A stretch of 32,000 bases of DNA from Candidatus Heimdallarchaeota archaeon (GTDB lineage: Archaea > Asgardarchaeota > Heimdallarchaeia > JABLTI01): assembly GCA_030614005.1 (NCBI GenBank), contig JAUWKS010000010.1, positions 30,001-62,000 on the forward strand, given 5' to 3'. Positions 24,162 to 27,659 of the stretch are shown here, piece by piece (within the stretch, counting starts at the first letter, position 1; the number at the start of each line of letters is the position of its first letter). Position numbers and translations under genes: made by a program. Below the pieces are notes generated by a model. That model was not told the DNA's origin, made no database searches, and was given only the letters and a program-made list of their open reading frames with translations.

Positions 24162-24360
24162 ATACTATGTTTTTGCTACCGATGATTCACCAAACCAGAA
24201 TGTTGCTACAGACGACAACGGAGGGGCCTATTATAGCTTTACAGCTTTTACCCCTGCACCAACGATAACAACAACACCAACCAGTCAAACATCAATAATA
24301 TTACTAATACCATTTATTGGAGCATTATTGGCAACAATAATTGTAAGAAAGAAACAGTAA
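24157..24360 (+). pseudogene. Orphan 3' end of a paralog of the 13959-17216 FN3/Ig surface protein
   Basis: VEYYVFATDDSPNQNVATDDNGGAYYSFTAFTPAPTITTTPTSQTSIILLIPFIGALLATIIVRKKQ*; 23/28 aa identical to the last Ig module. An in-frame TAA at 24142 leaves no start. Both stops are followed by TTTCTTTCTTA. Confidence 0.9.
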
Positions 24361-24588
24361 TTTCTTTCTTATTCTATTTTTCTTTATTCAATATTTCATC
24401 TCTAAAATTTTCAACTAGTTTCTCTATTCCTTTTATTAATGGTGCAATAGCTGTATCAAATCAAAATCTAATGGAGTTTCTTATATTAAAAATCTAATAA
24501 CTTTAGAATTTGCTTCTTTTTAAATAAGTTTGAGAAAAGGGAATTTTTGATAATTTATGAATAAAAAAAAGAGAGAGAAAAGGAAAAA

Positions 24589-26682
24589 TTACTTTTTCCT
24601 CTTTTTACGCATTAGTAGACCGATTACTGAAAACAGCACAAAACCGCCTACAAATGAGATTAGACCAAAAGGTGTATCTTCAACTGAATATAGAAGTGGA
24701 TTAGAAACTAAAATTCTTGTTCCATCTGCACCTTCAGCAAGGAAGATGTATCCATTTCTAATTGCTAAAGATTTATGTGTTGCTAGGTCATCATATTGTC
24801 CTATTAACCGAGGATGAACAATGTTTTCAGTATCACAAACCATTAAACCTAAATTGCCGTCTATTAAATAGACGTATTGTCCATCTACTTTCAGAGTGTG
24901 TGGGTCTTCATAAGTAAAGAATTGTCCTACTTTTACTGGTTCAAGTAAATCGGTAAGATCAATAATGTCAAAGCCTTCATCACATATGAAAAAGCCATGG
25001 TTATTTTGTATTTCTACACCCCAATAGTTTGCATTTGGACGTGTAAAATTACCAATTTGTTCAGGATTATATGGATTTGTTACATCAACAACATGCATGT
25101 AATCTTCTGCTGCTAAGATAAGGTTGTCTCCAAACTTTTTAACTCCCCATATCCACCCAAGTTCATCATATTGTAGTGATTTCATTGGATAATCTGGATA
25201 GTAGATATCGATAATTGCTAAACCATTCCATGCTTGAGCAACGTATGCAAACTCATCATCAACATAGATGTCCATAGACTGCCCTGTGAAAGAGATGTTC
25301 CCCTGATATACAGGATTGGCTGGATCAGTAATGCTTAAAATTACCATTATTGAATCACCATGGTCTTCTTCTAGAAGGTAAATGTAACCATTTCTTACAA
25401 ATAAATCAACAATTGGTCCACCAATTGAATAATCATGATAAGAACTTACTTTGGTAACATTAGCAAGATTAGTAATATCCAATATTTCTAATGAGAAATG
25501 ATCAGCAACAAAAGCATAATCTCCATCTAAGAATATCTTTTTAGTAATACCATCAAATACTTCAAAGTAAGCAGATGTGATATTTACTGGATTAGAGATA
25601 TCCAAAATCTCTACTGCATAAGTGCTATAAGCGAAAGCGTAATTTCCGTAGATATAAAAATCAAATATATCAATTTCAGCATCTGTGTATTCATAAGTGT
25701 ATACTGGGTTCGTTTTATTTGTCCAATCAAAGATTTCTAATTTATCGCCTTCATTCACAAACAAGTGATTATTTCTTACTTCTATACCATAACTAGTGTC
25801 ATTAAATAAAAATTCACTTAGATATATTAGGTTATCTTTTTCCGTTGCGTTTACTACACTAGCTCTAAACGGAGTAGCGTAATAAATGAAATTCTCAGAA
25901 TAATAAACATACTTTGCTCCACCAGAACCTATAGTATCTTCACGAATCATAGAAAATGGATCAGTCACATTATAGCAGCCTATAAATCCTAAAATATCAG
26001 CAGTATAGACATAACCATTAACATAATGCATTTCATCGATAAAAGCCATAGTAGTCCAGATATCAACAGGATTATTTCTATCTGTAATGTTTACAACTAT
26101 GAAATCATCGCTACTTGCCAAATAAACATAATTTCCATGAGCAGCGAGAGCAAATACACCATCAGGACTGAACCAATTACAAACCCATTCTGGATTAGCG
26201 GTATCGCTTATATCTACAACATTAAATCCTGTATCATTTGAAACAAAAACGAGATCATCTTCGACGTAAATATTATTACAACTATAAAGATCCCATGATG
26301 TTACTAATTGGAGGTCTAAATCAGTAATGTCATAGACTCTAAATCCTTCTGTACCTAGTGCCAAATACATTCTATTCTCGATAACAAATAGATCTTTGAT
26401 AGTACCATAATTGTCATCCCAAAAAGATAACTCTGTGATATTATTATCAGCAGAAGCAGCAGTCAGATCTTCACCGGGTGAAGGACCAACACTCTTAATT
26501 TCTATACTTTCCACAGCTTGTTCTTGACCAACAACCATTTTGGTACCACCAAAAACAGTCATTGTAAAGAATAATGAAAAAATAACTAAGAAATTAAATA
26601 GTTTTCGACTTCGTAATAGATTTCTTACATTCATAATTAGTCTACCTTTCCAAAGAGTACGAATTTTACTATTCATACACAA
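24589..26682 (-). CDS. LVIVD-repeat (beta-propeller) surface protein with C-terminal TM anchor
   Basis: Repeated 'YxYxA.....(L/I).I(L/I)D(I/V)(S/T)(N/D)P.NP' units, signal peptide, TPFG, TM helix and RKKRKK tail. Probable start is ATG 26634 after AAAGGT. Confidence 0.85.
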   Translation of the reverse strand: MCMNSKIRTLWKGRLIMNVRNLLRSRKLFNFLVIFSLFFTMTVFGGTKMVVGQEQAVESIEIKSVGPSPGEDLTAASADNNITELSFWDDNYGTIKDLFVIENRMYLALGTEGFRVYDITDLDLQLVTSWDLYSCNNIYVEDDLVFVSNDTGFNVVDISDTANPEWVCNWFSPDGVFALAAHGNYVYLASSDDFIVVNITDRNNPVDIWTTMAFIDEMHYVNGYVYTADILGFIGCYNVTDPFSMIREDTIGSGGAKYVYYSENFIYYATPFRASVVNATEKDNLIYLSEFLFNDTSYGIEVRNNHLFVNEGDKLEIFDWTNKTNPVYTYEYTDAEIDIFDFYIYGNYAFAYSTYAVEILDISNPVNITSAYFEVFDGITKKIFLDGDYAFVADHFSLEILDITNLANVTKVSSYHDYSIGGPIVDLFVRNGYIYLLEEDHGDSIMVILSITDPANPVYQGNISFTGQSMDIYVDDEFAYVAQAWNGLAIIDIYYPDYPMKSLQYDELGWIWGVKKFGDNLILAAEDYMHVVDVTNPYNPEQIGNFTRPNANYWGVEIQNNHGFFICDEGFDIIDLTDLLEPVKVGQFFTYEDPHTLKVDGQYVYLIDGNLGLMVCDTENIVHPRLIGQYDDLATHKSLAIRNGYIFLAEGADGTRILVSNPLLYSVEDTPFGLISFVGGFVLFSVIGLLMRKKRKK

Positions 26683-26716
26683 TCAATTCTTAAACCTACA
26701 TTGTAGTAAAAAGTGT

Positions 26717-26827
26717 TTGCTTCGTAGCAATTCATAAAGTCGAGGGTCATAATTGGTCATAACCAACATTTTTTGTGTATTTAAGACACATTAAGTGACC
26801 TCTTCTTGAGTCTTATTTTTGAGACTC
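26717..26827. other. Candidate structured RNA or operator array (nested inverted repeats)
   Basis: TTGCT-tcgt-AGCAA (26717-30). Closing stem GAG(G)GTCAT/GTGACCTC (26742-50 / 26795-802) encloses TTGGT-cata-ACCAA (26753-66) and TGTGT-atttaag-ACACA (26774-90). GAGTCT-tatttttg-AGACTC (26808-27). Confidence 0.4.
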
Positions 26828-26843
26828 TAAAAAGTGAATCCGC

Positions 26844-26851
26844 TTTATATA
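26844..26851 (+). promoter_or_regulatory. TATA box for the small peptide pair, possibly bidirectional
   Basis: TTTATATA 50 nt upstream of ATG 26901; reads ATATATAAAG on the minus strand. Confidence 0.5.
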
Positions 26852-26900
26852 TCAAACTGGTTGTATGTTAATTACGAATAAAACTCGGAGAACGAAAAAA

Positions 26901-26990
26901 ATGAACTTCAAAAAACAAAAAATCCAAAAACAAATCAAAAAGGACATTGAACAAATCAGAATACGAGTGAGCCTCTTATCTGGTTGCTAA
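26901..26990 (+). CDS. Small basic peptide 1 (29 aa): MNFKKQKIQKQIKKDIEQIRIRVSLLSGC
   Basis: GGAG SD at 26887-26890, upstream TATA box, and similarity to the adjacent peptide. Below the ORF-track cutoff. Confidence 0.65.
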   Translation: MNFKKQKIQKQIKKDIEQIRIRVSLLSGC

Positions 26991-27022
26991 AAAAACTGAT
27001 AATAAAATAAAGGTGAAAAAAA

Positions 27023-27109
27023 ATGAACAAAAAATACAACCTAAAAAAGAAGATTATGCAGGATAAAGCAAAGGCAAGATTGAATTTCGCACTCATTAAT
27101 GGTGTGTAG
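27023..27109 (+). CDS. Small basic peptide 2 (28 aa): MNKKYNLKKKIMQDKAKARLNFALINGV
   Basis: AGGTGA SD at 27011-27016; 10/28 identical to peptide 1 with a single gap. Confidence 0.7.
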   Translation: MNKKYNLKKKIMQDKAKARLNFALINGV

Positions 27110-27218
27110 ATTTCAATCATCTTATCTTTATTCAGGAAGAATTTATTTTAAAAAAAGAGATTTAGAAACACTCATTTTTAATGAGCATTTCAATCAGATT
27201 ACAATTTTAATTGTTCAT

Positions 27219-27659
27219 TTAATGGTTAACCATAAAAGTATGGGTTAAGACTTTACCATTATTATATTCGATTCTTATTTGTAGCATTTGTCCTTGTTCA
27301 AGTCCTTCTACATGATATTGGTAGGAGTAGTTCTGACCGTTTTGTATTCTGTGTCTGTATTGCCATTGATATTGTTCTTGGTAAAGTGTTACTTCAGTTG
27401 TACCATTTTTAATTTGGATCTGGTTCATGTATGCGTAATTGTGTTGGTGTTGATATTGATTACCTGCTGGTGTACCTGATTCTTCTTCACATGATAATAC
27501 TATACTTACGGTATCGGTATCTGAATCAGCTGTTGCACTAACAACGGATAATTCGCTGGCATCTGTTGGTGTTACAGCAAAATACACTCCAACTGAGGCT
27601 CCAGCTAAAACGACTACGATGCTTGTAACTAATATTGTAATGAGTACGGATTTCTTCAT
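27219..27659 (-). CDS. Membrane-anchored protein with Gln/Tyr/His/Asn-rich beta-strand domain
   Basis: N-terminal TM helix; NQYQHQHNYAYMNQIQI and YQEQYQWQYRHRIQNGQNYSYQYH segments. Confidence 0.75.
   Translation of the reverse strand: MKKSVLITILVTSIVVVLAGASVGVYFAVTPTDASELSVVSATADSDTDTVSIVLSCEEESGTPAGNQYQHQHNYAYMNQIQIKNGTTEVTLYQEQYQWQYRHRIQNGQNYSYQYHVEGLEQGQMLQIRIEYNNGKVLTHTFMVNH

Follow-up and report, generated by a model that had tools for sequence, protein, structure and literature searches.

Two tandem micro-ORFs of a Heimdallarchaeota contig belong to an undescribed, genus-wide family of lysine-rich, single-helix small proteins

Are the two very small tandem ORFs of the window (the whole 32,000-nt stretch of DNA that was analysed, from contig C40 of a 3.6-Mb metagenome-assembled genome with 33% GC) genuine genes and, if so, what could their products do? 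ORF a, of the alpha type, occupies positions 26901–26990 of the plus strand and encodes 29 residues before a TAA stop codon (net charge +6; C-terminal end Gly-Cys-stop). ORF b, of the beta type, follows on the same strand at 27023–27109 and encodes 28 residues before a TAG (net charge +7; C-terminal end Gly-Val-stop). The earlier note had placed both ORFs here with a Shine-Dalgarno (SD) sequence each, and reading of the window sequence bears this out: GGAG of ORF a is at 26887–26890, 10 nt 5′ of the ATG, and AGGTGA of ORF b is at 27011–27016, both on the plus strand and read directly, for SD-to-ATG spacings of 6–10 nt. A CTCGGAGAA block at the SD of ORF a is kept among a-type copies, and GGTG or GGAGG is kept 5′ of b-type copies. 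The two peptides are 29% identical to each other. On the 5′ side, the pair is flanked by a divergent gene for an LVIVD-repeat surface protein (24589–26682, minus strand) and on the 3′ side by a convergent gene for a 146-aa protein (27219–27659, minus strand). Since the convergent gene lies directly 3′, there is nothing else that could usefully be cotranscribed with the pair. Folding of the RNA places a hairpin over the last codons and stop of ORF b (27055–27130) and, 3′ of it, the T-rich tract TTTATTTT is read directly at 27142–27149 on the plus strand; together they may mark the 3′ end of the transcript. The window has no Rfam matches and no tRNAs.

Both ORFs are real genes of an undescribed family of Lys-rich, single-helix proteins of ∼29 residues, found in one Heimdallarchaeota genus. 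Searches with tblastn, phmmer, and an HMM identify 10 paralogs in the genome itself, arranged as tandem pairs on contigs C40, C121, and C7 and as single copies on C71, C54, C68, and C114. All are 28–30 aa in length and end in Gly, one or two further residues, and a stop. The family HMM separates them cleanly from the rest of the genome, with 10 matches at E < 1e-7 (1.3e-13 for ORF a and 4.8e-11 for ORF b) and the next best at E ∼0.9. Across the genus, HMM and six-frame searches yield 83 members in 11 genomes, and each of the 10 other genomes has between 2 and 15. Members are 27–34 aa long, 73 start with ATG, and only one of the 83 has an internal stop. An SD-like motif precedes 72 of 83 members (87%) versus 10% of random positions. 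In eight ortholog or paralog groups, dN/dS is 0.17–0.39 (pairwise Nei-Gojobori, summed within each group), with an excess at third positions. The clean HMM separation, the recurrence throughout the genus, the excess of SDs, and the low dN/dS put the two ORFs far beyond chance. The arrangement of an a-type followed by a b-type ORF is intact in ∼16 pairs, which include two syntenic loci across the genus and a divergent metagenome contig. The earlier note had proposed a small-protein family under protein-level selection, to be examined in relatives with a small-ORF HMM, dN/dS, and synteny, and on each of these the proposal stands, with conserved ORFs, dN/dS well below 1, and two syntenic pair loci. 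The ORFs of the window are probably translated and under purifying selection, judging from these patterns of substitution. An RNA-level element as the selected unit was considered and rejected: folding of the window transcript is only slightly more favorable than that of shuffles (z = −2.4, chiefly from the 3′ hairpin) and the codon-level signal argues for protein.

Beyond the genus, the family is nearly absent. Only one of 71 genomes of the class has a match (none in the one sister-genus genome and one among 70 others). This lone match, in genome G044, is on a 4.9-kb contig and comes close to one of the subtypes seen in the genus, which makes mis-binning no less probable than true spread. When 1.84 billion cluster representatives were searched with a profile, 64 clusters matched, all but four of 27–50 aa. 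These are the same tiny proteins, some with over-extended starts, and those looked up are unnamed or called "hypothetical protein." Among these matches, no larger protein has the family motif as a domain. The exact sequence of ORF a is absent from a collection of 15 billion proteins, Pfam, NCBIfam, and PDB sequences hold no homolog of established function, and a feature search of the ESM Atlas gave no usable match to the family. We found no description of the family in the literature. A stop-to-stop frame at contig ends, which weakly resembles the family, was considered as a distant member and rejected, as it belongs to an unrelated ∼190-nt repeat that has no start codon. This repeat is present at G000:C42:5400-5700 and in at least 15 further places, often where a contig ends, in copies that are 88–96% identical; it probably represents a small mobile or repetitive element at which the assembly breaks.

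The predicted structure is simple. AlphaFold2, given an alignment of 76 sequences, models one helix over residues 2–28 with a mean pLDDT of 89. In the column profile of the same 76 members, positions 4–18 are rich in Lys and Gln and are broken by hydrophobic residues at 8, 12, 16, and 19, which form a narrow seam with i/i+4/i+7 spacing along the N-terminal two thirds. Arg-20 (71 of 76 members) is followed by a denser and conserved hydrophobic stretch at 21, 23, 25, and 26 in the last two turns, where Leu-25 is also near-invariant. Near-invariant Gly-28 (72 of 76) would cap the modeled helix, and the tail 3′ of this codon varies from one to five residues across the family. The ten C-terminal residues, beside the stop, are the best conserved. 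Over 29 residues, the peptides have a net charge of +4 to +7; basic side chains surround the helix except at the seam, and Lys and Gln predominate over Arg. No transmembrane stretch (∼18–20 hydrophobic residues) is present; the longest hydrophobic run is ∼6 and mean hydrophobicity is 0.07–0.25. Likewise, the hydrophobic moment of the full-length peptides (0.07–0.32) is not above that of shuffled sequences (fraction of shuffles equal to or above the observed value, 0.12–0.90). A modeled complex of ORF a and ORF b, both entered as alignments, scored 0.04, a value that was obtained without controls and bears neither way.

The pair has its own promoter, as the earlier note had claimed from a TATA box upstream. 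The box, TTTATATAT, is at 26844–26852 and closes a promoter block (26829–26852, plus strand) that recurs in relatives together with an operator. From 5′ to 3′, the order is a palindrome with CTC, a GAGT element, the TATA block, and a leader of ∼25–30 nt that includes the SD. In the window, the operator-like palindrome GACAC-N5-GTGAC followed by CTC is at 26785–26802, with one mismatch to the family consensus GTCAC-N5-GTGACCTC, which is located ∼50 nt upstream of the TATA box. The right half of the interval 26717–26827 consists of this conserved palindrome and the GAGT element of the peptide promoter, so that the interval more likely functions as DNA than as a structured RNA; also in the window, GGTCATAA is repeated, at 26745 and 26755. 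The palindrome is kept 5′ of a-type and bactofilin-linked members in all 11 genomes, and an extended operator pattern has 2–10 matches per genome in these 11 versus none for a reversed control. The promoter block is nearly identical in the C40, C121, and C7 copies, has only 14 near matches in the genome, mostly at these promoters, and is 84–90% identical between types versus 60–67% for the ORFs. Other subfamilies have other operators. In the C68/C114 type and in some b-type genes, GGTCAC and GTGACC half-sites flank the TATA box, and palindromes surround the TATA box of an operon in which a family member leads an ArsR-type gene. In that operon (L004:5880-6015, G000:C54, and orthologs), TTGTAAT-N3-ATTACAA is just upstream of the TATA box and a second palindrome is near the start site. 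Having its own palindromes suggests that the ArsR-type operon is autoregulated.

The operator defines a regulon larger than the pairs. It is present 5′ of all three pairs of the genome and of a C71 operon that combines a small ORF with a bactofilin-domain gene. On C68, two tandem bactofilin-domain genes with products of ∼390 aa (G000:C68:48715-51300, L101) each have the operator and promoter and no small ORF; other bactofilin-like paralogs always have the small ORF. The only deoxyhypusine synthase gene of the genome (PF01916; G000:C4:62540-63862, L104) has the same operator and is preceded by a different ORF of 32 codons, which is kept in relatives (L081, L083, L085, L088) and resembles the family in its N-terminal half and not at its C-terminus. 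Operators were also found upstream of a gene for an MFS transporter (C35) and an ABC-2 transporter operon (C71), both distant from the pairs, and, on C114, of a family-like ORF of 35 codons ahead of hydrolase genes. Among the targets, the genes for bactofilin, deoxyhypusine synthase, and MFS proteins are found again in relatives, and the regulon genes have no obvious common theme. In Thermococcales, the glycolytic motif bound by TrmBL1 is TATCAC-N5-GTGATA, and location of this motif upstream of BRE/TATA corresponds to activation (PMC4706686). The operator described here shares its TCAC-N5-GTGA core and spacing, and the genome has, on contig C58, a gene for a 344-aa protein that contains a TrmB HTH. 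This resemblance between motifs makes a TrmB-like factor the putative regulator.

Location of members relative to other genes differs between pairs and single copies. Across the genus, one syntenic pair is 3′ of Gar1/SRP19 and faces a NAD-kinase-like gene, and the other is 3′ of a gene for a HEAT-acidic-linker-Ras-type GTPase and faces a gene for a 164-aa protein. Pairs also occur at other, genome-specific loci. In the window and on C121 and C7, a convergent gene is 3′ of the pair and the products thus cannot be mere leaders there; the window pair is not directly 5′ of any gene on the same transcript. Conversely, single copies are located 6–36 nt 5′ of unrelated genes that have their own SD, and 4 of the 10 copies of the genome, as well as many in relatives, are first cistrons. 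Subfamilies keep one fixed downstream gene across genomes: an ArsR-type HTH gene whose product has a long coiled coil (nine loci and a metagenome contig), a bactofilin-domain gene with a product of ∼390 aa (seven to eight loci), or a gene for a GNAT-containing protein of 1085 aa (three loci). Further downstream partners of single copies are genes for a TPR aspartyl protease and a 94-aa protein. Additional members in relatives adjoin divergent wHTH regulators of ∼210 aa or follow other mini-ORFs. Such regulators (ArsR/PadR-like) can form arrays (L046:3155-5450 in G006:C143, also L034 and L058) in which family members and further mini-ORFs of ∼23 codons are located between the regulator genes.

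The window pair has a mixed ancestry. At the DNA level, ORF a is 88.9% identical to the a-type copy of C121 versus 62.2% to that of C7. ORF b, conversely, is 80.5% identical to the b-type copy of C7 versus 59.8% to that of C121. With an ORF a of the C121 type and an ORF b of the C7 type, the window pair is a recombinant of the two syntenic pairs, and a recent one relative to these older pairs. ORF a differs from its C121 counterpart (93% identity in protein) by two replacements and six synonymous codon changes that include an AGC-to-TCT serine switch; the protein of ORF b is 79% identical to that of C7. The pair is also part of a lineage-variable segment (24162–27086), with the LVIVD-repeat gene, that MAG HM7_B34 (L073) lacks at its syntenic locus. 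There, at L073:4560-4600 (syntenic to 27087–27109 of the window), ∼23 nt from the 3′ end of ORF b persist as a remnant with the stop changed to CAG, implying that the pair was once present and then deleted. The family spreads as cassettes.

What the helices do is a separate question from whether they are made. The explanation that we favor, tentatively and as a whole with somewhat less than an even chance of being right, combines one transcription unit under operator control, helices that act in trans as binding modules, and a recombinant origin of the window copy. Transcription would start from the TATA promoter of the pair, and a regulator on the upstream palindrome GTCAC-N5-GTGAC would control it, most likely by activation. 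The helices, either singly or joined in an a/b coiled coil, would then serve as small binding modules in trans and could dock on partner macromolecules at acidic or hydrophobic surfaces. At the window locus, a purely cis role is excluded by the stand-alone pairs, and the fixed pairing of subfamilies with neighbors favors specific partners. The best candidates would be proteins encoded in the same regulon or, for operon-type copies, by the gene immediately 3′, such as the extended bactofilin-like proteins, the coiled-coil ArsR-type regulator, and the giant GNAT protein; RNA would be an alternative partner. A bolder version, which we regard as improbable, casts the a/b helices as diffusible regulators of the Asgard cytoskeleton that stem from a nutrient-responsive (TrmB-like) regulon shared with the long bactofilin-like proteins. 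They would cap, anchor, or nucleate filaments, or bind the small GTPase with an acidic linker that is encoded beside one pair.

A different possibility is that selection acts in cis on a cassette made of a promoter and a translated leader, in which stalling of the nascent chain or translational coupling tunes the downstream gene and stand-alone pairs are source copies or decoys. We consider this unlikely for the family as a whole, yet a serious rival for the operon-type copies. Members 6–36 nt 5′ of unrelated genes in conserved operons are positioned as leaders would be, and the 4 of 10 copies that are first cistrons also fit. So do the peak of conservation in the ten residues beside the stop, the better conservation of the promoter than of the ORFs between types, and the occurrence of cassettes at variable loci. 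In addition, the deoxyhypusine synthase gene and some family members have, on their 5′ side, other small ORFs that are similar in the N-terminal half. However, no same-strand gene lies downstream of the window pair or of the two syntenic pairs, downstream genes elsewhere have their own SD, and the two bactofilin paralogs of C68 use the same promoter without any small ORF. A tail of one to five residues after the invariant Gly fits poorly with a precise termination stall, and no intercistronic structure was found in the one transcript that was folded, that of the window.

The earlier note had listed nucleic-acid or ribosome binding among the possible functions, and the charge of the helices raises the question of whether they bind nucleic acids in general. 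Small basic RNA- or DNA-binding proteins of chaperone or nucleoid type, made upon a nutrient signal like the Fur-regulated basic proteins of Bacillus, would account for a net charge of +4 to +7 distributed around the helix except at the seam, for members coregulated by one operator, and for a multicopy dosage that suits an abundant binder. Nevertheless, the dominance of Lys and Gln rather than Arg speaks against this role, no known nucleic-acid-binding motif was found in searches of Pfam, NCBIfam, and PDB sequences, and tight pairing of subfamilies with neighbors is unexpected for a general binder. These features leave such a role conceivable but unlikely.

The earlier note had also raised the possibility of a membrane-active peptide. 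Tandem paralogous tiny ORFs with their own SDs, cationic helices, and MFS and ABC-2 transporter genes under the same operator recall leaderless cationic peptides (of archaeocin or PSM type, or helices that target the membrane of the producer) that are exported or countered by the coregulated transporters. This reading is weakened by the lack of a transmembrane stretch, low mean hydrophobicity, and a hydrophobic moment that does not exceed that of shuffled sequences. Moreover, no transporter or immunity gene is beside any pair, no maturase, exporter, or immunity gene consistently adjoins family copies, and selection is purifying rather than diversifying. We give it little chance of being correct. 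Least credible is the remaining proposal of the earlier note, a modified-peptide (RiPP) precursor with a Lys-rich leader and a short C-terminal core, because despite the short length, conserved C-terminal region, and copies that end in Cys, the last residue is Cys in only 8 of 76 members, the near-invariant residues are Arg, Leu, and Gly rather than Cys, Ser, or Thr, and in a survey of neighbors of the 10 native copies and ∼70 in relatives (genes of LVIVD, Gar1/SRP19, GTPase, ArsR-HTH, bactofilin, GNAT, and other types; representatives scanned against Pfam and the others read from ORF lists), copies have no conserved neighbor of the radical-SAM, YcaO, lanthipeptide synthetase, or peptidase kind and no maturase family was detected among the representatives.

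The family adds a clear set of overlooked genes, 2–15 per genome and mostly missed by annotation pipelines, together with a sharply delimited operator and regulon for which a single purified regulator would suffice as a test. It may also offer a way to approach the extended bactofilin-like proteins and the control of deoxyhypusine synthase in these organisms. No known organisms are more closely related to eukaryotes than the Asgard archaea and, to our knowledge, almost nothing is known of their small proteins and gene regulation. Peptides acting on filaments or on translation would represent a new regulatory layer; were they regulators of the cytoskeleton, there would be a micro-protein layer of cytoskeletal control in the closest prokaryotic relatives of eukaryotes. 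Even if they are only translated leaders, the cassettes show a regulon recruiting new genes.

Known systems share some features with the family and differ in others. Like arrest peptides and conserved-peptide uORFs (TnaC, SecM, and eukaryotic CPuORFs), members are short, conserved in the C-terminal part, and present in several copies directly 5′ of regulated genes. In contrast to these peptides, neither the window pair nor either syntenic pair has anything downstream, and the tail after the Gly varies. Strong amphipathicity or hydrophobicity and dedicated exporters encoded nearby characterize phenol-soluble modulins and leaderless bacteriocins. Their operons resemble the pairs in having tandem paralogous ORFs of 20–45 codons, a ribosome-binding site for each, one regulated promoter, and no signal peptide, whereas the peptides of the family are mostly polar, have a weak hydrophobic moment, and lack a linked exporter. 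FbpA, FbpB, and FbpC of Bacillus subtilis are Fur-regulated small basic proteins of a bacterium and are linked to an sRNA. They are likewise very small and basic, encoded in several copies under the operator of one regulator, and free of an enzymatic domain. No relation in sequence is known, and the family described here differs in its TrmB-like operator, its arrangement as a/b pairs or operon leaders, and its Asgard host. Lastly, relative to the TrmBL1/Tgr regulon, the outer bases of the operator differ, a fixed CTC and GAGT extension is added, and the targets are not those of sugar metabolism, but the TCAC-N5-GTGA core and its spacing, the position upstream of BRE/TATA, and the number of promoters, ∼10 per genome, are alike (PMC4706686).
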